Source of the DNA: an uncultured Verrucomicrobiales bacterium
GTDB taxonomy: Bacteria > Verrucomicrobiota > Verrucomicrobiia > Limisphaerales > Palsa-1400
NCBI GenBank assembly: GCA_903898185.1
Contig: CAIUEN010000364.1
Location: 13,394-77,393, forward strand
DNA: 64,000 nucleotides
Reading direction: 5' to 3'
The position numbers were made by a program, and so were the translations under genes. The stretch's first letter is position 1, and every line of letters begins with the position of its first letter. This document shows positions 6,613-45,593 of this stretch, piece by piece. Under the pieces are notes generated by a model that saw only the letters and a program-made list of their open reading frames with translations, made no database searches and was not told the DNA's origin.

Positions 6613-6687
6613 CTATTCAGGTAGCATAGGCATCCCTGCCTGTGCCCTCACTCCGACGAGCGTCAGCGAGACGCTAACTCTCCCCCC
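6613..6687 (+). repeat. family-A repeat copy A1 (degenerate termini), inside the dcw operon spacer
   Basis: CTATTCAGGTAGCATAGGCATCCCTGCCTGTGCCC...CGAGCGTCAGCGAGACGCTAAC aligns to the family-A consensus seen at 14829, 41136, 42255 and 43014. Confidence 0.7.
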
Positions 6688-6711
6688 GAACAGGCAAGAT
6701 GCCTGTTCTAC
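6688..6711. repeat. family-C palindrome (GAACAGGCAAGATGCCTGTTCTAC)
   Basis: It is a near-perfect palindrome. A related copy (GTAGAGCAGGCATCTTGCCTGCTC) lies at 45436-45459. Confidence 0.5.
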
Positions 6712-6715
6712 TTTG

Positions 6716-7645
6716 TCAAACCTTCTCAAATACACGCAATTGCGCACTGCGGCTGCGCGGGTTATCGCGCAACTCGCTCGCCCCAGGTAAAATCGCTTTC
6801 GATCCCAACCGTTTCAGCCGCGCCGGACGCGGACGCCGTAGTTCAGGAACATCCATCGTGCCAATCTGTTCGTAATCCCTGGACCAGTTCCGCCCGAAGT
6901 CCTTGACGCCCCGGTCTTCGAGCGAATGAAACGTAATCACCGCGAGCCGTCCGCCTGGACGCAAAACCTTTAGAGCGCCTTCCATGCCGCGTTTCAAAGA
7001 TCCAATCTCATCGTTCACCGCGATTCTCAACGCCTGAAACACTTTCGTGGCCGGGTGTGATTTACGCCCGCCACGCGGCGAAATCCGCTCCATCAATTGG
7101 GCCAACTGGAGCGTTCGCTCAAACGGACGCGTCTGCCGGTCCAGCGCAATCGCGCGGGCGATGCGCCTGGAATTCTCTTCCCCGCCAAATTCCCAAAAAA
7201 TCCGGGCCAGCTCATCTGGATTTGTTTCGTTAAGCAGCCGCGCTGCCGTCATCTCCTGCCGCTGATCCATTCTCATATCGAGCGGGCCGTCCTGCTGAAA
7301 ACTGAATCCGCGTTCCGCCCAATCGAGCTGCGGCGAACTCACCCCAAGGTCCAGCAGCACGCCATCGCAACTGTTCGCCTCAATCCAATCGGTCATGACG
7401 GCAAAGTCAGCTTGGTGAAGCTCAAATCGTCCCGCAAATCCCGCCAGGCGTATCTTCGCCGCTTCCATCGCTGCGCCATCGCGATCGAACGCATGCAGAT
7501 GTCCATTGGGCGAACTGGCTGTCAGAATGGCTGCCGCGTGCCCAGCTCCACCGACCGTGCCATCGACGTACCGCCCGCCCGGTCCGGGCGCCAGCGCCGT
7601 CAGGACTTCCACTGCTAAAACCGGTTTGTGGGTAAAGTTTGGCAC
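6716..7645 (-). CDS. rsmH: 16S rRNA (cytosine1402-N4)-methyltransferase RsmH (MraW)
   Basis: 309 aa with HKPVL, DGTVGGAGHA, DLGVSSPQLD and FHSLEDR motifs. It sits in the canonical dcw position. Confidence 0.95.
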   Translation of the reverse strand: MPNFTHKPVLAVEVLTALAPGPGGRYVDGTVGGAGHAAAILTASSPNGHLHAFDRDGAAMEAAKIRLAGFAGRFELHQADFAVMTDWIEANSCDGVLLDLGVSSPQLDWAERGFSFQQDGPLDMRMDQRQEMTAARLLNETNPDELARIFWEFGGEENSRRIARAIALDRQTRPFERTLQLAQLMERISPRGGRKSHPATKVFQALRIAVNDEIGSLKRGMEGALKVLRPGGRLAVITFHSLEDRGVKDFGRNWSRDYEQIGTMDVPELRRPRPARLKRLGSKAILPGASELRDNPRSRSAQLRVFEKV

Positions 7646-9491: not shown

Positions 9492-12400
9492 TCACCCCCG
9501 CCGCACTTCGGACAGAATCTGGTTAATGATGTTGAAGAGTGCTTTCAATTCATAAGGTTTGCCCAAGAATGCCTGAGGCAGTTCGGGATGATGGCCGGCC
9601 ATTGCGGCGGCCTTGCTGTAGCCGCTTGATATAATCACGGGGATGCCCGGCGCAAGCTGGCGCAGAGCGGTCAAGGTTTCCCAGCCGTCCATGCGTGGCA
9701 TGCTCAGGTCGCACAGCACACAATCAATCTCGTCACGGTGCTGAAGAAACAATTCCACCGCCTCGACGCCGTCCACGGCGGAGAACACCGTATAACCCTT
9801 GCGCTGGAGCGCGAGCACGACAAACAAGCGCAAACACTCGTCATCATCGACCACCAGCACCGTGTCGTGCCCTGCCTTTTTCGGGGCGGGAACCACCGGC
9901 GCTGGCGGTTGAAACACGGCAACCGCCGACACCGGCAGAAAGACACGGAAGACGCTGCCCCGATCCGGTTCGCTTGTTACCGTGATGCCTCCGCCGTGTT
10001 CCCGCACAATGCCCAAAACCACCGCCAATCCCAGTCCCCGTCCGGTGAACTTGCTGGAATAGAACGGGTCGAAGAGTTTCTCCATGTCCGTAGCCGCGAT
10101 GCCGCAACCAGCGTCCGCCACTTCCAGACAGGCATAGGCAGGGGCTTGCGGCTGCCAATCCACAGGGAAACGGTTCACCACTGGGATGTCGGCGTTGGCA
10201 ACCGGCTTGACGGTCAGTCGAATGTCGCCCGATCCGTCCCTGCTGGCCTCCCAAGCGTTGGTGAGCAGATGGGTGAGCACCTGTTGAATCTGGCTGGTGT
10301 TGGCGTGGATGACCGGGCCGGGTACAGGCAGATCGGTCTTCAAGCCTACGGTTTTCGGCATGCCTGCCGTCAGCAGAGGCAGGCTCCTCTGGCAGGTTTC
10401 CGAAAGATCCAGCGTCTCATGTTCGACATGGGTTTGGCCGAGGTAGGTCAGCATTTGGTCGCCAATTCCCGCCGCCTTGCGGGCGGACTGCAATGCTTCG
10501 GTCAGATTGGTGTCGGGAACCGCGTTTTGGGGCTGATCCTCTATGGCCAGCTCCAAGCCCATCATCACCGTTTGGAGCTGGTTGTTGAGATTGTGAGCGA
10601 CGGCTCCGGCCATGCGCCGGAGGCTTTCGGACTTTTGGAGTTGAAATTGCTGATTGAGGGCTTGCAGTCTGGCCTGCTCCGCCTCCGCCCGCTTGCGCGC
10701 GGTGATGTCGCGGGCGGCGGCAAAGACGCCCAATACCTGACCATGGGCATCCCGATAGACCGTGGCGTTGTAGAGCACATCCGTAACGCGTCCGGAGATA
10801 TGCCGGATAGCCAGCGGATAGTCGCGCACGAAACCCTCCGCGAACACCTGCTGATAGCCGGCCCGCGCTTGCGCCGGTTCGGTAAAGTAATCCGAAAAAT
10901 CCGTGCCGATGAGCTGTTCGCGAGGCACGCCGGTCACCTGCGCGGAAGCGTCATTAACGTCCGTGATCTTTCCTTCGACGCTGATGGTGACGAGCGGGTC
11001 GAGACTGGCTTCGAGGAGGCTGCGCGCATACGCCGCCGCCGTTCGCAACGCCGCCTCGGTCAACTTGAGCGAGGTGATGTCGGCAAAGGTGGTCACCACG
11101 GACGCCGGACGGTCCTCGCCGGGATTCAAGATGGGTTGGGCGTTGACGTTAATCCATTTCTGCGTGCCGTCGGGTAGGCGCAAGCCCATCGTCACATTCT
11201 GGCAGGGCTGGCCGGTGCGCAGGCTCACCATCGCCGGGTGCTCCTCGCCGGCGAAAGGCCGTCCATCCTCCAACACCGCCCGCCAGCTCGGATCCACGGA
11301 GGTTTTCCCCATGATTTCGTCCCGGCTCAAGCCGAGGATGCTTTCCGCGCTCGGGTTGCAGTCGGTAATGGCGCCATCCGCCGACTGCACCACCAGTCCC
11401 TCGCCCATGTTGGCCATGATGGCCCGCAACCGGGATTCGTTTTTTTCCAGCGCCAACTCCGCCAGTTTGCGCTCGGTAATGTTATCAAAAATGGCGGCAA
11501 AACAGCCCTCGCCCGCCCACGCCGCCGACACGACCAGCCAACGCGTCAAAGGGGCAAGGTACATTTCAAATCTCTTCGGTTGGCCTGTCAATACGACACG
11601 CCCGTAGATCTCAAACAACTCGGGATTGGATTCTTTAATGTCGGGAATGACCTCCGTCACCGGCTTGCCGGTCACATTGCGCAATCCGGTCAAATGTTCG
11701 AAAGCCGGGTTGACGGCGAGGTAAACAAAGTCCACCGGTCGCTGCTGGTCGTCAAAAACCATCCGGCAATAGGAGAAACCATTCAACATCGTCCTGATGA
11801 GGGAGCGATAGCGTTCCTCACTTTTCCGGAGCGCGTCCTCCGTCCGCCGACGCTTGGTGACGTCGCGGGCGGCGGCATAGATCAACTGGCCAACGGGCAA
11901 GGCCCTCCACTCGATCCAACGGTAGGAACCGTCATTGCAACGATAGCGATTCTCAAAATTGAGAACAGTCGCGTTCGCCGCCAGTTGCGTCATTATGGCG
12001 CGGGTGGCTTCCAGATCATCCGGGTGGATAAAATCCCAAAAACGCCGACCGGTCAGATCGGCCAGGGAATACCCCAAAGTCTTTTCCCATTCGGGGTTCA
12101 AGCGGCGGAAATAAGCGTCCGCGTCGGCAATGCATAGCAAATCGAGACTGGTATTGAAGAAGCGGTTCAATTCGGCGGTGCGTTCCTCCACCTGTTGTTC
12201 CAGATTGACCTTGCTGGCTTGCAACGCTGCCTGCTGCCAGCGGTTTTCCAGGATGATGGCCAGCGCATTGCCCAGGTTTTGGATGAAGGGTTCGTATTTG
12301 ACATAATCACTCTCCCTGTCAACCGTCAGGATCAGATAGCCATAAGTTCGGACCACGGTTTCCAGGGGATAAGCCCGGACATGATCCTGTTCTGCCAAGC

Positions 12401-12671
12401 CACAGACGTATTGGTCGGTTTTCATCTGTGGGCCCAGCCGCTGGGGGCAAAGCTGGCAGGTTTTCGCCCGCACATCGCCAATCGGCCCGACGAGATTCCG
12501 AAAACAGAGGCTTACGGCCTGGCATCCCGGAACGCCCGTGAGCAAGGGCGCCAGAAAATTCCCAATTTTCTCCTCGGATGGAAAAACGTAAATCAGGCTG
12601 GTGGCAGACACGATTTGCCCGACGACCTTTAGATCAATGTCCGCGCTTGTGTCCATAACGTGCCAAGTCAT
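9492..12671 (-). CDS. hybrid sensor histidine kinase (Cys-rich GAF-like N-terminus, about 5 PAS/PAC modules, HisKA, HATPase_c, C-terminal receiver)
   Basis: 1059 aa. It has repeated PAS/PAC signatures, an H-box at AGAVAHNLNNQL, an ATPase with DAGCGI...GRGLGL, and a receiver with VLVVDDDE...VLCDLSMPRMDG...IISSGY. I see no TM segment, so it is likely cytoplasmic. Confidence 0.9.
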   Translation of the reverse strand: MTWHVMDTSADIDLKVVGQIVSATSLIYVFPSEEKIGNFLAPLLTGVPGCQAVSLCFRNLVGPIGDVRAKTCQLCPQRLGPQMKTDQYVCGLAEQDHVRAYPLETVVRTYGYLILTVDRESDYVKYEPFIQNLGNALAIILENRWQQAALQASKVNLEQQVEERTAELNRFFNTSLDLLCIADADAYFRRLNPEWEKTLGYSLADLTGRRFWDFIHPDDLEATRAIMTQLAANATVLNFENRYRCNDGSYRWIEWRALPVGQLIYAAARDVTKRRRTEDALRKSEERYRSLIRTMLNGFSYCRMVFDDQQRPVDFVYLAVNPAFEHLTGLRNVTGKPVTEVIPDIKESNPELFEIYGRVVLTGQPKRFEMYLAPLTRWLVVSAAWAGEGCFAAIFDNITERKLAELALEKNESRLRAIMANMGEGLVVQSADGAITDCNPSAESILGLSRDEIMGKTSVDPSWRAVLEDGRPFAGEEHPAMVSLRTGQPCQNVTMGLRLPDGTQKWINVNAQPILNPGEDRPASVVTTFADITSLKLTEAALRTAAAYARSLLEASLDPLVTISVEGKITDVNDASAQVTGVPREQLIGTDFSDYFTEPAQARAGYQQVFAEGFVRDYPLAIRHISGRVTDVLYNATVYRDAHGQVLGVFAAARDITARKRAEAEQARLQALNQQFQLQKSESLRRMAGAVAHNLNNQLQTVMMGLELAIEDQPQNAVPDTNLTEALQSARKAAGIGDQMLTYLGQTHVEHETLDLSETCQRSLPLLTAGMPKTVGLKTDLPVPGPVIHANTSQIQQVLTHLLTNAWEASRDGSGDIRLTVKPVANADIPVVNRFPVDWQPQAPAYACLEVADAGCGIAATDMEKLFDPFYSSKFTGRGLGLAVVLGIVREHGGGITVTSEPDRGSVFRVFLPVSAVAVFQPPAPVVPAPKKAGHDTVLVVDDDECLRLFVVLALQRKGYTVFSAVDGVEAVELFLQHRDEIDCVLCDLSMPRMDGWETLTALRQLAPGIPVIISSGYSKAAAMAGHHPELPQAFLGKPYELKALFNIINQILSEVRRG

Positions 12672-13294
12672 TACCTCCTATGATAATCTTTCAAGAAATC
12701 CTGCGGCTTCATGTAAAACGGGTTATGCGCGATCTGCCCATGCACCACCATCATCGGATGAACTTTTAACACATCCAGGATGGTCGCCCCGCTGAACCGG
12801 TTGGCATCATACTGGCAAATGGCCGTCACCGGGTGTGTAACCATAACTTCATTAACCAAAGCTTCATATTCCATCAGGCGATCCGATCCGGGAATGCTCC
12901 TTAACGCCCAAGCCATTTCCCCGCTGACGCGGGCGTTCGGATACCCTTCATTTATTGCCTGTCCATAAAATTCCCGTAGCGTCTGCAACATGATTTCGGG
13001 AACAAACGCGCCGGACGAACAATAGGTGTTTGCAGCGTCGCCAATGGAAAAGCCGCCATTGCACGGGAGTCCCACGCCCATATTCTGCAACCATGCCCGA
13101 ACCTCTTCCGGCTTCATGGCGTCAGCAAAATACGCCACTTTCTCTTTGGCCCGCAGTCCGCTTTCCAGGAATTTCCCAATGATGGTACGCCGCTCAAAGT
13201 CATCGGAGTAGATCAGGCACATGTGGGTTCCGGCGGGGAAAGGTTTGGGCGTGAAACCCATCGGGGTCAGGTTGGTTGAATTGTTTGGGTGCAT
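12671..13294 (-). CDS. MEDS-domain protein (putative sensory partner of the downstream kinase)
   Basis: I trimmed the ORF 12671..13423 to the ATG at 13292-13294 (MHPNNS...). HMCLIYSDDFERRTIIGKFLESGL...KVAYFAD...ICQYD resembles the MEDS family. Its TAA stop (12671-12673) overlaps the kinase ATG (12669-12671) in a GGAGGTAATG context. Confidence 0.65.
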   Translation of the reverse strand: MHPNNSTNLTPMGFTPKPFPAGTHMCLIYSDDFERRTIIGKFLESGLRAKEKVAYFADAMKPEEVRAWLQNMGVGLPCNGGFSIGDAANTYCSSGAFVPEIMLQTLREFYGQAINEGYPNARVSGEMAWALRSIPGSDRLMEYEALVNEVMVTHPVTAICQYDANRFSGATILDVLKVHPMMVVHGQIAHNPFYMKPQDFLKDYHRR

Positions 13295-13631
13295 GATATT
13301 CAAGTGGCAGTTGGTGTGCTCGAAATCAGAGTTTGCAAAGGACCATGCGTGTCGGCAAAAACGGGCGTGCCGCCCATGATTTCCGAGGCGAAGCGGGCGA
13401 TGCCTTTTAAAGCTTCCATACAAAGAAGCATAATCCTGTCGGCGAATTTATCAACTGGCAAACCTCAGCAATTCTCATTTTGACTCTTTGCGTGACATTT
13501 TCTTGCGCAAAACTGCCCCAATCGTGCATAAATCTTAAGAAACACGCCGCAAATCGACACGCAAATCGACAAAAAGCGTCAAGATCGAGTCATAATAAGA
13601 ATTGCTGCAATTTGCATAATTAGAATTGATG

Positions 13632-13651: not shown

Positions 13652-13688
13652 GTTTGTGAATTGTTAGTGAAACGAAATTTTGGATATT

Positions 13689-14030
13689 ATGATGAAATTA
13701 GAATTCAAATACAGAAACGCTGGGAAAATCCGTGAGGCTTTACTGTCAGCAGCATCGAGTCTTCGGTATTTGTGTTGCAGTGTCGCTGCGCTGCTTGTCC
13801 TATCCCTTGGCTGTGGCGCCGCTCGCGCTAGTATTGCCTATGGAAGCATCAATAATTTCGACACCGTGAATGACACTGGAGTTCCAGCGTACGGTTTTGA
13901 GATTGAACTGGACGATATTCATAGCGCGGACATCAGTTACACCTACGATTGGAACCACTACGGCACTAATTATCAAGCGACAATTCCAATCACAGGTGTC
14001 ATGCGCTTCCTTCGGTTGATGCATCCGTGA
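13689..14030 (+). CDS. small hypothetical secreted protein (possibly a gene fragment)
   Basis: ATGs at 13689 and 13692 precede a signal peptide (LCCSVAALLVLSLGCGAARA), then SIAYGSINNFDTVNDTGVPAYGFEIELDD.... The ORF ends 9 nt before a family-A-type terminus at 14040. It lies in a low-GC region. Coding status is uncertain. Confidence 0.35.
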   Translation: MMKLEFKYRNAGKIREALLSAASSLRYLCCSVAALLVLSLGCGAARASIAYGSINNFDTVNDTGVPAYGFEIELDDIHSADISYTYDWNHYGTNYQATIPITGVMRFLRLMHP

Positions 14031-14142: not shown

Positions 14143-14832
14143 ATGCGCTCACTTATGGCCGGAGAAAACACAAACCACAGTCCAATCGATTCTGAGTTGG
14201 TGGCGCAAGCAAAATCCGGCGATCTTGCTGCGTTTGAATCGCTCGTTTGTCGCCACGAGCGTCACGCCTATTCGCTTGCGCTGAGAATTGTGCGCCATGA
14301 GCACGATGCTCAAGACGCGACACAGCAAGGCTTTCTCAGTGCCGTGGAGCATCTGAAGGATTTTCGTGAGGATTCCGGTTTTGCCACATGGTTGATGCGT
14401 GTCATGACCAACGCCGCGCTCAAGATTCTGAGAAAACGGTTGGGGTTGAATGTCGTTTCGATTGAGGAACATGCTGAGCTTCAGGATGAATTCGACTCGG
14501 TTCCCCATCCCGATTACATTGCCGACTGGCGTGAATCCCCATCGGTTTTGGTCGAGCGCAATGACACCCTTGCCATTATTGAGACAGCCTTGGGGCAATT
14601 GGACGAAAACCATCGACTGGTCTTTCTTTTGCGCGACGTTGAGGGGCTTTCTGTTCTTGAAACCGCACAAACCCTGGGTATCAGCGAGAACAATGTGAAG
14701 GTTAGGTTGTTACGGAGCCGGTTGCGGTTGCGTGAAATGCTAACGGAGAAGTTCGGCGACCCTTCTCGTCAGGTCAAGCGTGATCCCAATCATGCGCATG
14801 CGAACTTTCCAGCGGATAGAAAGAAAGTGTAA
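14143..14832 (+). CDS. ECF-type RNA polymerase sigma factor (sigma-70 family, group 4)
   Basis: 229 aa. Region 2 reads AFESLVCRHERHAYSLALRIVRHEHDAQDATQQGFLSAVEHLKDF...FATWLMRVMTNAAL. Region 4 reads HRLVFLLRDVEGLSVLETAQTLGISENNVKVRLLRSR. The TAA stop at 14830-14832 lies inside the GTAAC terminus of repeat A2. Confidence 0.85.
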   Translation: MRSLMAGENTNHSPIDSELVAQAKSGDLAAFESLVCRHERHAYSLALRIVRHEHDAQDATQQGFLSAVEHLKDFREDSGFATWLMRVMTNAALKILRKRLGLNVVSIEEHAELQDEFDSVPHPDYIADWRESPSVLVERNDTLAIIETALGQLDENHRLVFLLRDVEGLSVLETAQTLGISENNVKVRLLRSRLRLREMLTEKFGDPSRQVKRDPNHAHANFPADRKKV

Positions 14833-14926
14833 CTGTTCACGTAGCATAGGCATCCTTGCCTGTGCCCCTTCCCCCCCGGCGAGCGTCAGCGAGACGCTAA
14901 TTCATCCCTCTAACCCGAACAGTTAC
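14829..14926 (+). mobile_element. family-A MITE copy A2
   Basis: This is a full-length copy (GTAACTGTTCACGTAGCATAGGCATCCTTGCCTGTGCCCC...GAGCGTCAGCGAGACGCTAAT...CCGAACAGTTAC). Confidence 0.85.
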
Positions 14927-14932
14927 TTTTTT

Positions 14933-15023
14933 ATAATTATTCAGAGGGAGAAATTAGCGTCTCGCTGACGCTCGCCGGAAAGAGGAACACAGGCAAGGAT
15001 CCCTATGCTACCTGAAAAGTTAC
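14933..15023 (-). mobile_element. family-A MITE copy A3 (inverted, tail-to-tail with A2)
   Basis: TCAGAGGGAGAAATTAGCGTCTCGCTGACGCTCGCCGG...CACAGGCAAGGATCCCTATGCTACCTGAAAAGTTAC is the reverse complement of the A consensus. Confidence 0.8.
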
Positions 15024-15292
15024 GAAAGAAATGGCCGTCTGTTTCAATCGCTATCATATATTATTGAAGGGCAACGGCTTGCATCCATTTGTAACTTTTT
15101 CACCTGTTGTGGCTCAATATAAGAAGGCGGAAAACTGTTTATAAGCCTGAGGTGTGGCAATGCGGGATTAGCCCGCATTATCCGATAAAATAAATCCGGT
15201 TAAACAGTGTGTGTTGGAACGATAAGTGCTTATAATAAAATTGATAAATTTTAAAATCGAAAAATTAGAACCGAACGCAAACGAAACTTTAT

Positions 15293-17833
15293 ATGCAGTC
15301 AGCAACTGTTAACCAATCCTACCATATGCGAACTTTGAAAACGATCTGCATGGCTGCGGCCCTTGCTGTTCCAGTCTCTCTACCGGCGGCGGACTCGGTG
15401 CTGCTTGGGTGGAACAATCTCGGCATGCATTGCATGGACAGCGATTACTCGGTGTTCTCCATCCTGCCTCCGTATAACACAATCGAAGCTCAGTTGGTGG
15501 TGGGCGGCAAGCTGCTCAAAACCAACACCGGATATTCAGTCACCTACGAAGCCATCGCGGATCCAGACGGCTCAATCAATTCAACGTCGGCTGGCAAGGG
15601 AAATTTTTACTCTTTTACAGCGGCTCTGTACGGCGCTCTTGCGACGGACCATGGATTGGCCGGATGGGGGATGCCGGGGGCTGCAAATCAGCCGCAGTCA
15701 ATGCTTTTCGAAAATACAAATCACCCGGCCACCGGAGTGGCAATGAGAGTGGACTGGTTTCGCGCGGAAGGGATTCCGATTACTCCCTACGACAACGCCA
15801 TGAAAAAGAACTCCTATCCGATGATGCGGTTGGTAGCGCGCAATGCGGCCAAAGCGATCATTGCGACCAATGACATCGTTCTGCCGGTGTCCGATGAGAT
15901 GGATTGCCGGGCATGTCACGCGTCTGGTTCGCCTGTCGCCGCAAGACCGGCGGCAGGGTGGGTGAACGATGCAAATCCCGAGCGCGATTACCGTCTAAAC
16001 GTTTTACGCCTCCATGACGAGAAGGAGTTTTCGTTGCATTCGGCGGACTACTCGGCAGCGCTCGCGACGGCGGGGTTGAACCCGGAGGGGCTTTATGCCA
16101 ACGTAGCATCCGATGGCAGGCCAATTCTTTGCGCAGGGTGCCATGCATCCGAAGCTTTGGGGACGGCAAGCATTGGAAAAATCCCGTCCCTGACAGCATC
16201 CATTCATTCGTTGCATGCCGGTGTGATGGATCCGGTTCTTAACATGCCCATGGACAGCTCTGCAAACCGGGCCGCCTGTTATCGCTGCCATCCGGGCTCG
16301 ACCACCAAATGCTTGCGTGGCGCGATGGGCAGCGCTGTCGCCGCCGATGGCTCAATGGCCATGCAATGCCAAAGCTGCCATGGCAGCATGACGCAGGTGG
16401 GCGCGGCTAACCGGGTTGGCTGGTTCATGGAACCTAATTGCCAAAGCTGCCACACGGGCACCGCGAAACGCAACAATGGCCAGATTCGTTATACATCCGT
16501 ATTTGACGCGAGCGGCAATACCCGCCTCCCGGCAGACACGACATTCGCCACCACGCCAAACACTCCGGCTGCGGGAATCTCCCTTTATCGTTTTTCAGTT
16601 GGACACGGCGGTCTTCAATGCTCCGCCTGCCACGGTTCGACTCACGCCGAATTTCCAGCTTCGCATCGCAACGACAATGTTCGGAATATCGAACTGCAAG
16701 GGCATGCCGGAGTTTTATCAGAATGCGCCGTATGCCACACCACCGTGCCCAGCACCGTTAACGGCGGCCCCCATGGGATGCATCCTGTTGGACAGTCGTG
16801 GGTACGACAACACCACGATTCGGTTGAGAGTGCCGGCGCGGCAGCGTGTCAATCATGTCATGGCGTCGATTATCGTGGAACCGTTCTGTCACGCTCACAG
16901 GCGGACCGATCTCTCAGCGCTTTTGGGACGCAGACCTTCTTCCGCGGAGCCATCATCGGTTGCTACACCTGCCATTCCGGCCCGTCCAATGACGATGCGA
17001 ACAGCAGCCTGGCGCCTGTGGTTTCAAGCGTTTCCGCCAGCACTTGGACAGGTCATTCAGTGTCGTTTACATTGCCGGTCTCCGGCGCGAATGCAACGTT
17101 GCGAATCATCTCCCAGCCCGCACATGGCACTGCCGGTTTGAGCAATTCCACAGCCACCTATTTTCCAGATTCTGGGTTTGCTGGATCTGATTCGTTCACG
17201 TTTGCGGCATACGATGGATCAAAGAATTCGATACTGGCGACCGCCACAATCACGGTGACAACAAATCCCCCTGTGGCGCCCGTGATTACAAAGGCACCGG
17301 CTGGCGTGACGGTGTCTCCAGGCGCCACGGTTGTCTTCAGTGCAACCGCCACTGGCACAGCACCTTTGCGTTATCAATGGTTCAAGAATGGCGCTTCAAT
17401 TCCATCGGCGACCAACACAACATTGACGCTGACTGCCGTGACCGCCTCCAGCGCGGGAAACTACTCTGTTAGCGTCAGTAACGCCGCCGGATCGGTCTTG
17501 AGCGCGACTGCGACACTGACGGTGAAGACAACCCCAATTACTGTAAAACTGACAAGTCCCGCTGCGAACGCTTCCTATGCTGCTCCCGCGTCTGTGCGTC
17601 TGACGGCTTCCGCGTTGCCGGTTGCCAGTGTCGCCCAAGTTCAGTTTTATGATGCCGGGACATTACTGGGATCTGCGAGTACCACTCCATTCACAATCAC
17701 TGCAAATCTAAAAGCGGGCGTTCATGTCTTGACCGCGAGGGCGATCAATGGAAGCGGCGTTACATACACCTCGCCGTCAGTTCGTGTCACGGTGACGCAG
17801 CCAGCAGTGGTTTCGCGAGCGGCTCGAAACTAA
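15293..17833 (+). CDS. secreted multiheme (nine CxxCH) c-type cytochrome with three C-terminal Ig-like/beta-sandwich modules
   Basis: 846 aa with a signal peptide (MRTLKTICMAAALAVPVSLPA). An alternative start is the ATG at 15326. The nine heme motifs are CRACH, CAGCH, CYRCH, CQSCH, CQSCH, CSACH, CAVCH, CQSCH and CYTCH (about nt 15905-16975). The C-terminus carries an I-set-like module (...TGTAPLRYQWFKNGASIPSATNTTLTLTAVTASSAGNYSVSVSNAAGS...) flanked by two further Ig/cadherin-like modules. Confidence 0.85.
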   Translation: MQSATVNQSYHMRTLKTICMAAALAVPVSLPAADSVLLGWNNLGMHCMDSDYSVFSILPPYNTIEAQLVVGGKLLKTNTGYSVTYEAIADPDGSINSTSAGKGNFYSFTAALYGALATDHGLAGWGMPGAANQPQSMLFENTNHPATGVAMRVDWFRAEGIPITPYDNAMKKNSYPMMRLVARNAAKAIIATNDIVLPVSDEMDCRACHASGSPVAARPAAGWVNDANPERDYRLNVLRLHDEKEFSLHSADYSAALATAGLNPEGLYANVASDGRPILCAGCHASEALGTASIGKIPSLTASIHSLHAGVMDPVLNMPMDSSANRAACYRCHPGSTTKCLRGAMGSAVAADGSMAMQCQSCHGSMTQVGAANRVGWFMEPNCQSCHTGTAKRNNGQIRYTSVFDASGNTRLPADTTFATTPNTPAAGISLYRFSVGHGGLQCSACHGSTHAEFPASHRNDNVRNIELQGHAGVLSECAVCHTTVPSTVNGGPHGMHPVGQSWVRQHHDSVESAGAAACQSCHGVDYRGTVLSRSQADRSLSAFGTQTFFRGAIIGCYTCHSGPSNDDANSSLAPVVSSVSASTWTGHSVSFTLPVSGANATLRIISQPAHGTAGLSNSTATYFPDSGFAGSDSFTFAAYDGSKNSILATATITVTTNPPVAPVITKAPAGVTVSPGATVVFSATATGTAPLRYQWFKNGASIPSATNTTLTLTAVTASSAGNYSVSVSNAAGSVLSATATLTVKTTPITVKLTSPAANASYAAPASVRLTASALPVASVAQVQFYDAGTLLGSASTTPFTITANLKAGVHVLTARAINGSGVTYTSPSVRVTVTQPAVVSRAARN

Positions 17834-17861: not shown

Positions 17862-17899
17862 AAAGCCCGCTGTTTCAGTCGAAACGGCGGGCTTTTTTC
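17862..17899 (+). terminator. rho-independent terminator after the cytochrome gene
   Basis: AAAGCCCGCTGTTTC-AGTC-GAAACGGCGGGCTTT forms a 15-bp stem with one mismatch, followed by a T-run (GCTTTTTTCA). It starts 28 nt after the stop codon. Confidence 0.7.
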
Positions 17900-17910
17900 A
17901 TTGGCTCATG

Positions 17911-18006
17911 GTAACAATTCAGGTCGGAGGGAGAAATCAGAGTCTCGCTGACGCTCGCCGGGGGAAGGGGCACAGGCAAGGATGCCTATGCTACCTTAAT
18001 AGTTAC
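17911..18006 (-). mobile_element. family-A MITE copy A4
   Basis: The copy reads GTAACAATTCAGGTCGGAGGGAGAAATCAGAGTCTCGCTGACGCTCGCCGG...GGCAAGGATGCCTATGCTACCTTAATAGTTAC. The flanking 8-mers GGCTCATG and GGCTGATA match at 6 of 8 positions. Confidence 0.85.
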
Positions 18007-41135: not shown

Positions 41136-41231
41136 GCAACTATTCAAGTAGCATAGGCATCCTTGCCTGTGCCCCTATTTCCGGCGAGCGTCAGCGAACC
41201 GCTAATTTCTCCCTCTGACCTGAACAGTTAC
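41136..41231 (+). mobile_element. family-A MITE copy A6
   Basis: The copy reads GCAACTATTCAAGTAGCATAGGCATCCTTGCCTGTGCCCC...GAGCGTCAGCGAACCGCTAATTTCTCCCTCTGACCTGAACAGTTAC. It lies between convergent genes. The flanks AATGATTC and GATGTTCA are only loosely similar. Confidence 0.85.
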
Positions 41232-41241
41232 GATGTTCAAG

Positions 41242-42216
41242 TCAACGATCAGCGTAACCGCTGGGATGAGCCTTATGCCAACGCCATGCGGTCTGCACTA
41301 TCTGTTCCAAGCGCGGAAATTGAGGCTTCCAGCCAAGCTCAGTGATCGCTTTTTGAGCGGCGGCTACCAAGCTCGGCGGATCGCCCGGACGCCGGGGTTT
41401 CTCAACGGTCTTGATGCTCACGCCAGCAACTTGCTCGCACATTTTGATGACTTCGCGCACTGAGTAGCCGTCGCCGTTGCCCAGGTTAAAAAAGCCTTGT
41501 TTGCCTGGCGTCAAGGCCAGGATATGAGCCTGCGCCAAGTCAGCGACATGGATGTAGTCGCGAATGCATGTGCCGTCCGGCGTCGGATAGTCGGTACCGA
41601 AAATATCGCACTGGGCTGCCAGGCCCATCGGCACTTTCAACACGTTGGGAATCAGATGAGACTCAATCTTATGGTGCTCGCCAAAATGTTCCGTCGCGCC
41701 TGCGGCATTGAAGTACCGGAAAGCCACAAATTCCAAGCCGTGAATCTGATGATACCAACTCAACACCTTCTCAAACATCAGCTTGGACTCGCCATAAGGG
41801 TTGATTGGCCGTTGGGGCAGATCTTCGGTCATGGGGACGCGGTCCGGTGGCCCGTAGGTGGCGCACGTTGAACTAAAAACAAATTTCTTCACACCCGCCG
41901 CAACCGCCGCATCCAGCAGATTAAGGCCGCTGGCGACGTTGTTGCGAAAATACTTCGATGGATTGACCATCGATTCCCCAACCAGCGCATGCGCGGCAAA
42001 GTGAATAACGGCTTGAGCGCCAGAATCGCGAATCGCGGAGGTTATAGCAGTGATGTCGGCCAAATCGCCTTTCACAAAGAAAGCGCGAGAATCGACCGCC
42101 AAGCGATGACCTTCCGAGAGGTTGTCGAACACCGTGACGCGATGTCCGGCATTGATTAATTCCTCCACACAAACCGAGCCGATGTATCCGGCGCCGCCGC
42201 TAACAATGACATTCAT
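41242..42216 (-). CDS. galE: UDP-glucose 4-epimerase GalE
   Basis: 324 aa with the MNVIVSGGAGYIGS Rossmann motif, a YxxxK catalytic motif (YGESK) and an SDR-extended fold pattern. Confidence 0.9.
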   Translation of the reverse strand: MNVIVSGGAGYIGSVCVEELINAGHRVTVFDNLSEGHRLAVDSRAFFVKGDLADITAITSAIRDSGAQAVIHFAAHALVGESMVNPSKYFRNNVASGLNLLDAAVAAGVKKFVFSSTCATYGPPDRVPMTEDLPQRPINPYGESKLMFEKVLSWYHQIHGLEFVAFRYFNAAGATEHFGEHHKIESHLIPNVLKVPMGLAAQCDIFGTDYPTPDGTCIRDYIHVADLAQAHILALTPGKQGFFNLGNGDGYSVREVIKMCEQVAGVSIKTVEKPRRPGDPPSLVAAAQKAITELGWKPQFPRLEQIVQTAWRWHKAHPSGYADR

Positions 42217-42254: not shown

Positions 42255-42352
42255 GTAACTATTCACGTAGCGTAGGCATCCTTGCCTGCGCCCCTCTCTC
42301 TCCGTCGAGCGTCAGCGAGACGCTAATTTCTCCCTATGACCTGAATAGTTAC
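42255..42352 (+). mobile_element. family-A MITE copy A7 with a perfect 8-bp target-site duplication (CATTGCCT)
   Basis: CATTGCCT occurs at 42247-42254 and at 42353-42360, directly flanking GTAACTATTCACGTAG...CCTGAATAGTTAC. The termini GTAACTATTCA and TGAATAGTTAC are perfect inverted repeats. Confidence 0.9.
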
Positions 42353-42962
42353 CATTGCCTTTCAACTCTCCCTTAATGGCGTTCAACAGTTCGCCATAGG
42401 CTTCAAATGGGGTGAACTGCGGGAATTGCTGTTTGATTAATTCAGGCGCATGAAAGAAAAAACCGGCGTTTGCCTCCATGAGCATTGCAGTATCATTGAA
42501 TGAATCTCCGGCAGCGACTATATAATAATACAGACTCTTAAGGGCGATGACCGAATGGCGCTTGGGCTGGGGCTGGCGGAGTTTGTAGTCGGCAACCCGG
42601 CCATTTTCGATCACCAAGTGATTGCAAAAAATAGTGGGCCACTCAAGCTGCTTCATCAGCGGCTTGGCAAACTCCTCAAAGGTGTCGGACAAAATGATGA
42701 CCTGCGTCAGCGACCGCAATTCCCTCAAAAACTCCAAGGCGCCATCAAGCGGTCGGAGTGTCGCAATAACCTCTTGAATGTCCGCCAGCTTGAGACCGTG
42801 CTGGTCGAGAATTTTGATGCGCCCAAGCATCAGCTTCTCGTAGTCGGGTTCATCGCGGGTTGTGCGGCGTAACTCGACAATACCAGTCTTCTCGGCCACC
42901 GAAATCCAAATCTCGGGAACCAAGACACCCTCCAAATCCAGAACAACAACGGACTGCTTCAC
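42312..42962 (-). CDS. thrH: ThrH-like HAD phosphatase (phosphoserine phosphatase / homoserine phosphotransferase)
   Basis: VVVLDLEGVLVPEIWISVAEKTG...DEPDYEKLM..R..ILDQHGLKLADIQEVIATL.PL.GA.EF...VIILSDTFEEFA.PLM.QL..PT..C..L...KLRQ...K..VIALKSLYY.IVAAGDSFNDT.ML closely follows my recollection of Pseudomonas ThrH. I propose the start at GTG 42960-42962. The track start (TTG 43008-43010) lies in the flank of a MITE. The last 13 codons plus the stop are MITE A7 sequence. Confidence 0.8.
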   Translation of the reverse strand: MKQSVVVLDLEGVLVPEIWISVAEKTGIVELRRTTRDEPDYEKLMLGRIKILDQHGLKLADIQEVIATLRPLDGALEFLRELRSLTQVIILSDTFEEFAKPLMKQLEWPTIFCNHLVIENGRVADYKLRQPQPKRHSVIALKSLYYYIVAAGDSFNDTAMLMEANAGFFFHAPELIKQQFPQFTPFEAYGELLNAIKGELKGNGNYSGHREKLASR

Positions 42963-43013: not shown

Positions 43014-43115
43014 AACTATTCACGCACGTACGTAGCATAGGCATCCTTGCCTGTGCCCCTCCTTCCGGCGAGCGTCAGCGAGCCGCTAATTTCTCCCTCT
43101 GACCTGAAAAATTAC
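43014..43115 (+). mobile_element. family-A MITE copy A8 with a perfect 8-bp target-site duplication (GGCAAATC)
   Basis: GGCAAATC occurs at 43006-43013 and at 43116-43123, flanking AACTATTCACGCACGTACGTAGCATAGG...CCTGAAAAATTAC. The left terminus lacks the GT of GTAAC. Confidence 0.85.
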
Positions 43116-43160
43116 GGCAAATCATCCAGCCAGAGCTGCTCTCAAGTCGAGTAGCGTCCA

Positions 43161-45459: not shown

Positions 45460-45490
45460 CGGGCAAAGGGGCAAGCTGTTGTTGTTATAG

Positions 45491-45593
45491 CAATTACCCG
45501 TTCAGGTCAGAAGGATGAATTGGCGTCTCGCTGACGCTCGCCGGAAAGAGAAGCACAGGCAAGGATGCCTATGCTACCTGAGCAAATTGTTAC
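45491..45593 (-). mobile_element. family-A MITE copy A9
   Basis: The copy reads CAATTACCCGTTCAGGTCAGAAGGATGAATTGGCGTCTCGCTGACGCTCGCCGG...GGCAAGGATGCCTATGCTACCTGAGCAAATTGTTAC. Its GTTAC end contains the TAA stop (45590-45592, minus strand) of the adjacent gene. Confidence 0.8.

Follow-up and report, generated by a model that had tools for sequence, protein, structure and literature searches.

What does a secreted cytochrome with nine hemes do when it ends in immunoglobulin (Ig)-like modules and is encoded apart from any porin or partner oxidoreductase? The question is raised by a gene at positions 15293 to 17833 (forward strand) of a stretch of 64,000 nucleotides from an uncultured Verrucomicrobiales bacterium (assembly GCA_903898185.1, contig CAIUEN010000364.1), here called the window. 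An earlier note, made from the letters of the window, had called the domain combination of its 846-residue product unusual and a fit for an extracellular or cell-surface redox protein. The protein belongs to a large family built on a conserved nine-heme core, and the heme region of this core is best read, by profile comparison, as two tandem modules of the MtrC type with five and four hemes. To the view that the protein is a self-contained extracytoplasmic electron-transfer cytochrome, whose redox core is held out on Ig-like modules, we give about an even chance.

Gene and protein architecture

The gene and the parts of its product are listed below in window coordinates.

15293..17833, + strand: nonaheme c-type cytochrome gene, 846 residues (open reading frame, ORF; alternative start Met12 at 15326)
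15293..15388, + strand: predicted Sec signal peptide, residues 1-32, without lipobox (by inspection)
15389..15892, + strand: heme-free N-terminal beta-sandwich, residues 33-200 (AlphaFold2 model and conservation)
15893..16477, + strand: heme module A, hemes 1-5 (CxxCH motifs, hhalign to MtrC)
16478..17017, + strand: heme module B, hemes 6-9 (CxxCH motifs, hhalign to MtrC)
17018..17260, + strand: Big_9 / cadherin-like beta-sandwich, residues 576-656 (Pfam Big_9, E 3.4e-8, match 574-656)
17279..17524, + strand: Ig_3 / I-set module, residues 663-744 (Pfam Ig_3, E 1.8e-11; I-set, E 1.9e-10)
17540..17737, + strand: Big_7 bacterial Ig-like module, residues 750-815 (Pfam Big_7, E 2.3e-11)

The nine CxxCH motifs are exactly those of the earlier list. 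Module A contains CRACH (residue 205), CAGCH (280), CYRCH (329) and CQSCH (359 and 383), and module B contains CSACH (443), CAVCH (478), CQSCH (519) and CYTCH (557). Together they cover residues 205-561, about 357 residues, in agreement with the former estimate of about 350. The protein contains no CxxCK or other atypical heme motif. In 20,000 shuffles of the 846-residue protein at most two CxxCH motifs occurred and 98% had none, and among the ORFs of the window the cytochrome ORF is the only one with more than one CxxCH.

Read from Met12, the N-terminus (MRTLKTICMAAALAVPVSLPA|ADS) displays n-, h- and c-regions on inspection. Met12 (15326) rather than Met1 may be the true start, and the signal peptide would probably be cleaved after LPA, before ADS. 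Equivalent signal peptides immediately precede a conserved LLGWNNLGMHCMD in the homologues. The signal peptide and the conservation of all nine CxxCH motifs in homologues bear out the reading as a secreted multiheme c-type cytochrome.

The heme-free N-terminal domain postulated earlier is real, being all-beta in a confident AlphaFold2 model (residues 33-200), and the three beta-sandwich modules behind the hemes, one of them I-set-like, are recognized by Pfam as Big_9, Ig_3/I-set and Big_7. For the heme region Pfam yields only weak, generic cytochrome matches (Cytochrome_C7, 35.8 bits with a cut-off of 24.8; Cytochrom_c3_2, 25.5 bits with a cut-off of 25), and for residues 1-200 it yields nothing. 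The N-terminal beta-sandwich has no match in Pfam or NCBIfam, and NCBIfam offers no model for the window protein. An identical protein (P0001) is called on 5 public contigs. The homologue P0037 is likewise 846 residues long, has the same architecture over its full length and is 63% identical. The closest full-architecture homologue and the syntenic neighbours come from metagenome-assembled genomes (MAGs) of Verrucomicrobiota.

Candidate heme ligands, cysteine pair and structure models

Conservation of the heme motifs in homologues, on which the earlier interpretation depended, was found throughout. All nine CxxCH motifs are kept in 68 close homologues: the His and the second Cys of each motif are invariant, and for hemes 5 and 7 the first Cys is conserved to 90% or more; in 22 and in 79 diverse homologues, down to 38% identity, all nine are fully invariant. 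Nine is also the modal heme count of the family.

Outside the motifs, complete or at least 90% conservation is shared by exactly nine other histidines, namely His 46, 241, 305, 308, 438, 451, 494, 497 and 507 (His and Cys positions in full-length numbering). The number suggests one candidate distal ligand per heme. His241, His305 and His308 are candidate distal ligands in module A and His438, 451, 494, 497 and 507 in module B, and His46, which lies in the N-terminal beta-sandwich, may be a heme ligand as well. Nine conserved non-motif histidines together with the lack of any atypical motif favour bis-His electron-transfer hemes over a catalytic open heme, and all nine hemes are probably low-spin and bis-His coordinated.

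Apart from those of the heme motifs, the mature protein has just two cysteines. Cys47 belongs to the N-terminal domain, where it sits in a near-invariant GMHCMD loop, and Cys340 to a KCLRGAMG motif that follows heme 3 in module A. Both are present in 72 of the 79 diverse homologues and neither in six; a single one never occurs, the remaining sequence being N-terminally truncated. This perfect co-occurrence points to a disulfide or a coupled thiol pair, and a Cys47-Cys340 disulfide probably joins the beta-sandwich to the first heme module.

An AlphaFold2 model from the 68 close homologues was poor in the heme region (predicted local distance difference test, pLDDT, 65.9), and its Foldseek matches (p53-like and other beta-sandwiches, and MtrC with low probability) were not trusted. 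The model from the 79 diverse sequences reached a pLDDT of 93.7 and a predicted template modelling score (pTM) of 0.92, with 91-98 (pLDDT) for the N-terminal domain; it shows an all-beta N-terminus, a heme region of mostly loops and short helices, and a terminal beta-sandwich. When searched with Foldseek against PDB, the Big_9 domain alone was matched (phage collar, SraP and Rib Ig-like domains).

Similarity of the heme modules to MtrC

The sequence of Shewanella oneidensis MtrC, which agrees fully with PDB 7QTH/7O7G except for the mutation engineered into them, served as reference. In hhalign comparisons, residues 280-390 (hemes 2-5) align with hemes 2-5 of MtrC domain II at a probability of 88-90% (P 1.5e-6 to 3e-6), including the His motifs SIHSLHAG and SHLIHNVHN. 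Residues 443-562 (hemes 6-9) align with MtrC 186-311 (domain II hemes 1, 2, 3 and 5) at 83-86%. Between the N-terminal domain and MtrC domains I/III no similarity was found by hhalign (probability 0.2%). Of 22 diverse members, 19 are matched by PF22113, the Pfam model of MtrC/MtrF domains II/IV. Many of these matches exceed its gathering score of 30 bits, and the matched position varies with the member (hemes 1-4, 4-8 or 5-9); in P0037 it covers residues 358-529 with 49 bits, the cut-off being 30. The P-values are those of single comparisons and derive partly from motif spacing, so that the relationship is to be taken as probable remote homology and not as family membership.

The NCBIfam OmcA/MtrC decaheme model gives no match at E<=1, and in PDB no solved structure is detectable by sequence for the core. 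The PDB matches to the core or the family profile were weak and generic (reaction-centre cytochrome, flavocytochrome c3, NrfB and STC) and were discarded as unusable.

Distribution and accessory modules

A word-indexed search with the window protein gave more than 5,500 matches. The best 120 of them, all with E = 0, are 733-1388 residues long, align with 74-98% of the query and are 57-71% identical to it. The core alone (residues 33-575), searched with HMMER against 1.84 billion cluster representatives (50%-identity clusters), matched 509 clusters at E<=1e-30 and, with the threshold relaxed to E<=1e-3, 1868. When one genome per GTDB species was scanned with an alignment of closer homologues, at least 595 encoding loci were found. 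Most of these belong to Verrucomicrobiota (subdivision 3, Limisphaerales); other hosts are Geobacterales, including cultured Geomonas isolates, as well as Acidobacteriota, Candidatus Binatia, Planctomycetota and Myxococcales, and a few loci come from MAGs labelled Proteobacteria. The Geomonas isolates carry close homologues with cores 68-70% identical, and some genomes hold two paralogous copies of the cytochrome gene. The family appears to be horizontally spread.

The combination of multiple hemes with Ig-like modules, which had been thought unusual, is therefore not so: the same core with beta-sandwich modules occurs in hundreds of species of several phyla, and characterised precedents exist in OmcZ (PMC9473688) and MccSep (PMC13510729). 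The further suggestion that the protein might belong to a common, already annotated family applies in its first half; the family is common and its heme modules are remotely MtrC-like, but neither Pfam nor NCBIfam has a model that covers the core of about 540 residues. Public records name the homologues immunoglobulin, PKD or IPT/TIG domain-containing protein, hypothetical protein or even ferredoxin, and none among them calls the protein a cytochrome. No paper on the family was found in the literature searched.

Identity to relatives falls from the core (69-74%) over Big_9 (55-71%) to the C-terminal modules (32-58%). The I-set and Big_7 modules form a lineage-variable region and are swapped in relatives for PKD, TIG, Flg_new_2 or many I-set repeats; Big_9 is conserved along with the core in most members. 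One homologue (P0176, 541 residues) consists of the core alone, and other relatives reach 1738 residues with up to about 7-9 Ig, PKD, TIG or Flg_new_2/InlB-B-repeat modules. In more distant members the core is C-terminal, behind lipobox signals (LGCGG-type in some divergent members) and other beta-rich N-terminal extensions. Because the core is conserved and can stand alone and the modules are replaced, the core is regarded as the functional unit and the Ig-like modules as accessory.

Several variations were recorded on this plan. An extra N-terminal segment with a tenth CxxCH (e.g. CANCH in P0004, residues 1-120) is present in 15 of the 120 best homologues, and this segment precedes several I-set repeats, which in turn precede the core. 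In P0228 the last heme unit is repeated towards the C-terminus, which brings the number of motifs to 17. In many relatives, P0070, P0084 and P0103 among them, and in an unrelated secreted protein encoded beside the cytochrome gene at locus L023, a terminal beta-sandwich carries the motif G-x-(R/K)-(F/Y)-(F/Y)-R-(L/V), for example GSRFFRLFHP, GNRYFRLIRP or GDKFYRVRQAW. This domain might be a sorting or anchoring domain shared among Verrucomicrobia; the window protein has no such terminal motif.

The accessory modules bear on where the protein acts. It could stay in the periplasm as a carrier or capacitor that stores electrons and shuttles them between quinol dehydrogenases of the inner membrane on one side and periplasmic reductases or unlinked conduits of the outer membrane on the other. 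The Ig-like modules would then do no more than keep the protein soluble or dock it to the outer membrane or to peptidoglycan. A Sec signal without lipobox or known surface-sorting signal would suit such a carrier, as would the lack of a secretion system or porin near the window gene, the putative all-bis-His complement, which is typical of carriers, and the mere three beta-sandwich modules of the window version. Relatives with 7-9 extra modules and up to 1738 residues would be hard to accommodate, their arrays being probably too long for the periplasm; I-set, PKD, TIG and InlB-B-repeat modules typically belong to proteins that are secreted or displayed on the surface; and the lipobox relatives resemble outer-surface lipoprotein cytochromes. 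A periplasmic carrier is for us quite improbable. An extracellular or cell-surface location is plausible, and the long repeat arrays of relatives, the lipobox versions and the surface-type accessory domains make it likelier than a periplasmic one.

Genomic context in relatives

Individual neighbourhoods were inspected and all ORFs of 85 loci were clustered. No recurrent porin, periplasmic cytochrome, maturation gene, oxidoreductase or conserved partner emerged from the 85 loci, and the cytochrome gene is for this reason seen as a unit that usually stands alone.

A minority of loci share other neighbours. A resistance-nodulation-division (RND) efflux pump with its adaptor lies within 7 kb in 16 of 80 loci and is adjacent in 6; in several related loci the pump is directly upstream on the same strand. 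Loci with RND genes include L029, L030, L039, L043, L049, L050, L051, L087 and others, the RND strings often contain a YgaP-like transmembrane protein and a rhodanese, and in L004/L011 the adaptor has a heavy-metal-binding domain. ArsR/SmtB-family regulators, which share a conserved C-terminal LCxLVCxK motif, occur in 9 loci and are adjacent and divergent in 5. In seven loci (L005, L014, L015, L018, L038, L039 and L050) a TGAAtAtATATTCA palindrome precedes the cytochrome gene, always at the same distance. It lies between the divergent ArsR/SmtB gene and the cytochrome gene, about 165 nucleotides upstream of the mature N-terminus of the homologue, and reads TGAA(T/C/A)A(T/C)A(T/C)(A/T)TTCA. The TGAATATATATTCA palindrome is a probable classical ArsR/SmtB-type operator of a thiol-based sensor. 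The window contains neither an ArsR regulator nor this operator. Genes for rhodanese, a YgaP-like transmembrane protein, a YeeE/YedE-type transporter and thioredoxin are occasionally found near relatives. The homologue of Geomonas oryzisoli (L003; CP076723.1, 4150502-4173480) has 992 residues and ends in a TIG-domain tail. Its gene is monocistronic, and the gene next to it, arranged tail-to-tail, encodes a di-heme cytochrome c peroxidase (CCP_MauG); Geomonas oryzisoli is a tractable system for tests of function.

These neighbours raise the alternative that the cytochrome is an oxidoreductase induced by stress, which would detoxify soft metal(loid)s or reactive sulfur species (such as polysulfide or persulfide) either within the periplasm or extracellularly. 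Cys47/Cys340 and His46 would then form part of a catalytic or redox-switch site beside a heme, comparable to the Ig-like residues of MccSep, in which an Ig-like domain gives catalytic residues to a multiheme enzyme (PMC13510729). The RND pumps with their adaptors, one of them heavy-metal-binding, speak for this, as do the divergent ArsR/SmtB regulators with the TGAAtAtATATTCA operator in about 7-10 loci, the rhodanese, YgaP-like, YeeE/YedE-type sulfur transporter and thioredoxin genes of some ArsR/RND loci, and the peroxidase gene in Geomonas oryzisoli; enzyme-like conservation of the core and single-gene mobility would also suit a resistance-type function. Yet the associations cover 10-20% of loci and are absent from the window, and with as many conserved histidines as hemes, nine of each, no heme is obviously left open. 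Cys47 and Cys340 are jointly lost in several divergent nine-heme members, which fits a structural disulfide better than a catalytic residue. The protein fits none of the known catalytic multiheme families; the model of octaheme tetrathionate reductase (octaheme_Shew) reaches 19.9 bits against a cut-off of 375 (residues 315-395, E 3e-4). A detoxifying enzyme is the strongest of the rival readings, but on balance unlikely.

Proposed function

The electron-transfer cytochrome introduced at the outset, with its core held out on Ig-like modules, would operate as follows. After Sec export nine hemes would be covalently attached to a protein that is not lipidated. The nine bis-His hemes would form a continuous electron wire, not an enzyme site with an open coordination position. 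The N-terminal beta-sandwich would be stapled onto module A by the Cys47-Cys340 disulfide, and might offer His46 as a ligand as well as a docking or binding surface. Big_9 and the Ig-like modules would act as stalk, spacer or attachment device and keep the core at or beyond the cell surface. Generic carriers of the periplasm or outer membrane would supply the electrons, and exposed heme edges would hand them on to acceptors that are soluble or lie outside the cell, for example humic quinones, Fe(III) or other metal species. All of this would take place within a single-gene module that needs no dedicated porin partner.

A number of observations weigh against this proposal. The protein has neither a lipobox nor a recognisable sorting signal, and its gene has no secretion genes nearby and no porin-cytochrome partner. 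A core identity of 60-74% across phyla is more enzyme-like than that of the fast-diverging MtrC/OmcA conduits, and the ArsR, RND and rhodanese links, confined to a minority of loci, point to a role in stress or detoxification. With respect to MtrC, the window protein itself remains below the PF22113 threshold, an hhalign P of about 1e-6 is only marginal at database scale with alignments driven partly by CxxCH spacing, and a profile hidden Markov model search of all PDB sequences did not retrieve MtrC. The models, finally, contain no hemes, so that ligand assignment and disulfide are derived from conservation.

A bolder version of the proposal goes further. The family would be a porin-independent branch of the MtrC superfamily and the main single-gene extracellular terminal reductase of Geomonas and of the abundant Verrucomicrobiota and Acidobacteriota, for the most part uncultured, in peat, soil and freshwater. 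It would act on humic or particulate organic matter or on metals, with Cys47-Cys340 as a redox switch linking beta-sandwich and heme wire and, in some lineages, with expression controlled by thiol-based sensors of the ArsR type. In this full form we consider it doubtful.

Neighbourhood of the gene in the window

The statement that no porin, cytochrome maturation gene or partner oxidoreductase is adjacent can be extended to the whole window, where no porin, ccm/ccs gene or oxidoreductase was found; nor does the window contain a secretion system, a protease or a second cytochrome. Further features are as follows.

9492-13423, - strand: MEDS-domain sensory protein and hybrid histidine kinase of 1059 residues (several PAS domains, receiver)
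13680-14030, + strand: ORF of 116 residues, 5' remnant of a larger gene
14143..14832, + strand: sigma factor gene of the extracytoplasmic function (ECF) type, possible regulator (Pfam Sigma70_r2, r4_2, ECF)
15090..15118, + strand: candidate ECF-type promoter TGTAAC-N17-CTCAAT, 175 nucleotides upstream of the ORF; weak and ambiguous
6616-6720, 14829-14943, 14911-15023, 17896-18000, 41144-41248, 42265-42369, 43028-43132, 45479-45583: copies of a repeat of about 85 nucleotides

The ECF sigma factor gene noted before is present upstream; the downstream neighbour is GlmS, on the other strand. Homologues of the sigma factor, 57-59% identical, lie 2.5-4 kb upstream of the cytochrome gene in the Verrucomicrobia loci L005 and L035; family-wide, a sigma factor gene within three genes of the cytochrome gene was seen in one of 79 loci. 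The candidate promoter is the sole match to TGTAAC-N17-CTCAAT in the window, with at least one chance match in 22% of shuffles, and the upstream region of the L035 homologue has a similar motif with the same spacing. Its GTAACT.TTCA resembles the end of the local 85-nucleotide repeat. An ECF-dependent promoter was rejected as inseparable from the inverted-repeat end of this repeat and statistically not compelling. No enrichment of sigma-70 promoters or terminators was observed.

The repeat is intergenic and occurs in 8 copies within the 64 kb, with 0 expected by chance. It has the core GCGAGCGTCAGCGAGACGCTAAT and mutually inverted ends, GTAACTGTTCA ... TGAACAGTTAC. Two inverted copies in the gap between sigma factor and cytochrome genes and one just downstream bracket the cytochrome gene. 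It looks like a repetitive extragenic palindromic (REP) element or a miniature inverted-repeat transposable element (MITE); Rfam gives no match in the window, the repeat included.

The hybrid histidine kinase gene is directly downstream of the MEDS-domain gene, with which it probably forms an operon, and the pair is divergent from the string of remnant ORF, sigma factor gene and cytochrome gene. The first approximately 82-96 residues of the remnant (signal peptide and AYGSINNFDTVNDTG...) are 59-75% identical to the N-termini of secreted He_PIG/Flg_new_2 proteins of 578-640 residues, which neighbour the cytochrome gene in the Verrucomicrobia loci L014, L023 and L047; the remainder of the parent gene is not in the window. 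Downstream of the cytochrome gene follow GlmS, NadD-like, RsfS and MtnA-like genes, and the rest of the window is occupied by housekeeping functions (dcw cell-wall genes, an MqnC-like radical SAM enzyme, succinyl-CoA synthetase, glycosyltransferases).

Significance

Extracellular electron transfer in Verrucomicrobiota and Acidobacteriota has been inferred from porin-cytochrome gene clusters (PMC5615132; bioRxiv 10.64898/2026.05.27.727921), and He et al. reported that Verrucomicrobia MAGs lack outer-surface cytochromes homologous to those of Shewanella or Geobacter (PMC5615132). This literature describes porin-linked clusters and not the present cytochrome. The family is widespread, strongly conserved, genetically alone and hidden under names like 'immunoglobulin domain-containing protein'. 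Should it serve as an electron outlet, surveys by porin-cytochrome synteny or by annotation would overlook it. The architecture is common and its general design has precedents; the family is uncurated, structurally unsolved and mis-annotated, and a curated model and name would correct hundreds of misleading annotations even if its role should turn out to be mundane. The family matters mainly because it is abundant in uncultured, environmentally important phyla of soil, peat and freshwater, and the close homologues in cultured Geomonas make the question accessible to genetics and biochemistry.

Comparison with known cytochromes

An enzyme like NrfA, hydroxylamine oxidoreductase (HAO) or octaheme tetrathionate reductase (OTR) was rejected on scores far below the cut-offs (the NCBIfam NrfH model gave 15.9 bits against 134) and on the His count. 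OcwA of Thermincola potens has nine hemes and is located at the cell surface; the window protein has as many hemes. Unlike the group of NrfA, OTR, HAO and OcwA it has no CxxCK and no lysine- or tyrosine-type catalytic signature, and it has nine conserved distal histidines. Desulfovibrio NhcA/9HcA consists of two cytochrome c3-like tetraheme domains and an isolated heme and is encoded in an nhc membrane-complex operon. It was likewise rejected; no such chain is among the PDB matches and no membrane-complex operon is nearby.

MccSep is a pentaheme selenoprotein polysulfide reductase of the GSU2936 type. In it a C-terminal Ig-like beta-sandwich gives a catalytic chalcogen residue beside a heme of the multiheme cap (PMC13510729). 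The conserved GMHCMD loop of the window protein is conceptually similar to this catalytic residue, and sulfur-related genes neighbour the family gene in a minority of loci. MccSep differs by its five hemes, its tetrameric state, the C-terminal position of the Ig-like domain, the His/Cys-ligated heme and selenocysteine, whereas the two cysteines of the family covary and can be missing from some members. That Cys47 ligates a heme in the manner of MccSep was considered less likely than a disulfide, since it covaries perfectly with Cys340 and the two are lost together. In PDB no solved multiheme enzyme is matched by sequence.

OmcZ of Geobacter sulfurreducens is made as an octaheme nanowire preprotein with tandem C-terminal Ig domains and is cleaved by OzpA (PMC9473688). 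The window protein could by analogy be a nanowire precursor, from which a protease removes the Ig-like modules so that the heme core polymerises into conductive extracellular filaments. The layout of signal peptide, heme core and tandem C-terminal Ig-like domains (Big_9, I-set, Big_7) is that of the OmcZ preprotein (PMC9473688), the resemblance being one of layout only, and an S8 subtilisin-like protease gene adjoins the cytochrome gene in one of about 85 loci (L007). The window has no protease gene, and no linked subtilisin-like protease accompanies the gene there. Where OmcZ has eight hemes, the protein has nine CxxCH motifs, together with an additional beta-sandwich at the N-terminus and a core about twice the size of the OmcZs, OmcS and OmcE subunits; it lacks sequence similarity to OmcZ, which is absent among the PDB matches up to E=10, and to any filament cytochrome in PDB. 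Conservation of the first Ig-like domain, Big_9, with the core argues against removal of these modules. A filament precursor is accordingly a very remote prospect.

MtrC, OmcA, MtrF and UndA of Shewanella, deca- and undecaheme outer-surface cytochromes (PDB 4LM8, 4LMH and 3PMQ), are the closest in design. The window protein fails as a member of the MtrC/OmcA family in four respects: the count of hemes and the arrangement of domains, the missing lipobox, the lack of a linked porin and the absence of a match to the NCBIfam model. In contrast to their 10-11 hemes in two pentaheme domains, each behind a beta-barrel domain (I-II-III-IV), the window protein has nine hemes in a direct 5+4 tandem, with no beta domain between the heme modules in the confident AlphaFold2 model. 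It has no lipobox, no mtrAB-like porin-cytochrome genes lie near it or in related loci, the family protein carries C-terminal Ig-like modules, and across phyla the family core has diverged far less than MtrC/OmcA proteins have. MtrC-family proteins have a conserved disulfide in a beta-barrel domain, and the family has a comparable conserved Cys pair outside its heme motifs. Like MtrC and OmcA, the protein begins with a beta-rich N-terminal domain, followed by multiheme modules with (here putative) bis-His hemes; HxxH-type distal-ligand motifs align with those of MtrC in hemes 2-5 and 6-9, and some distant family members are lipoproteins, as MtrC is. Among the systems compared, the window protein would work most like the MtrC/OmcA-type outer-surface cytochromes.

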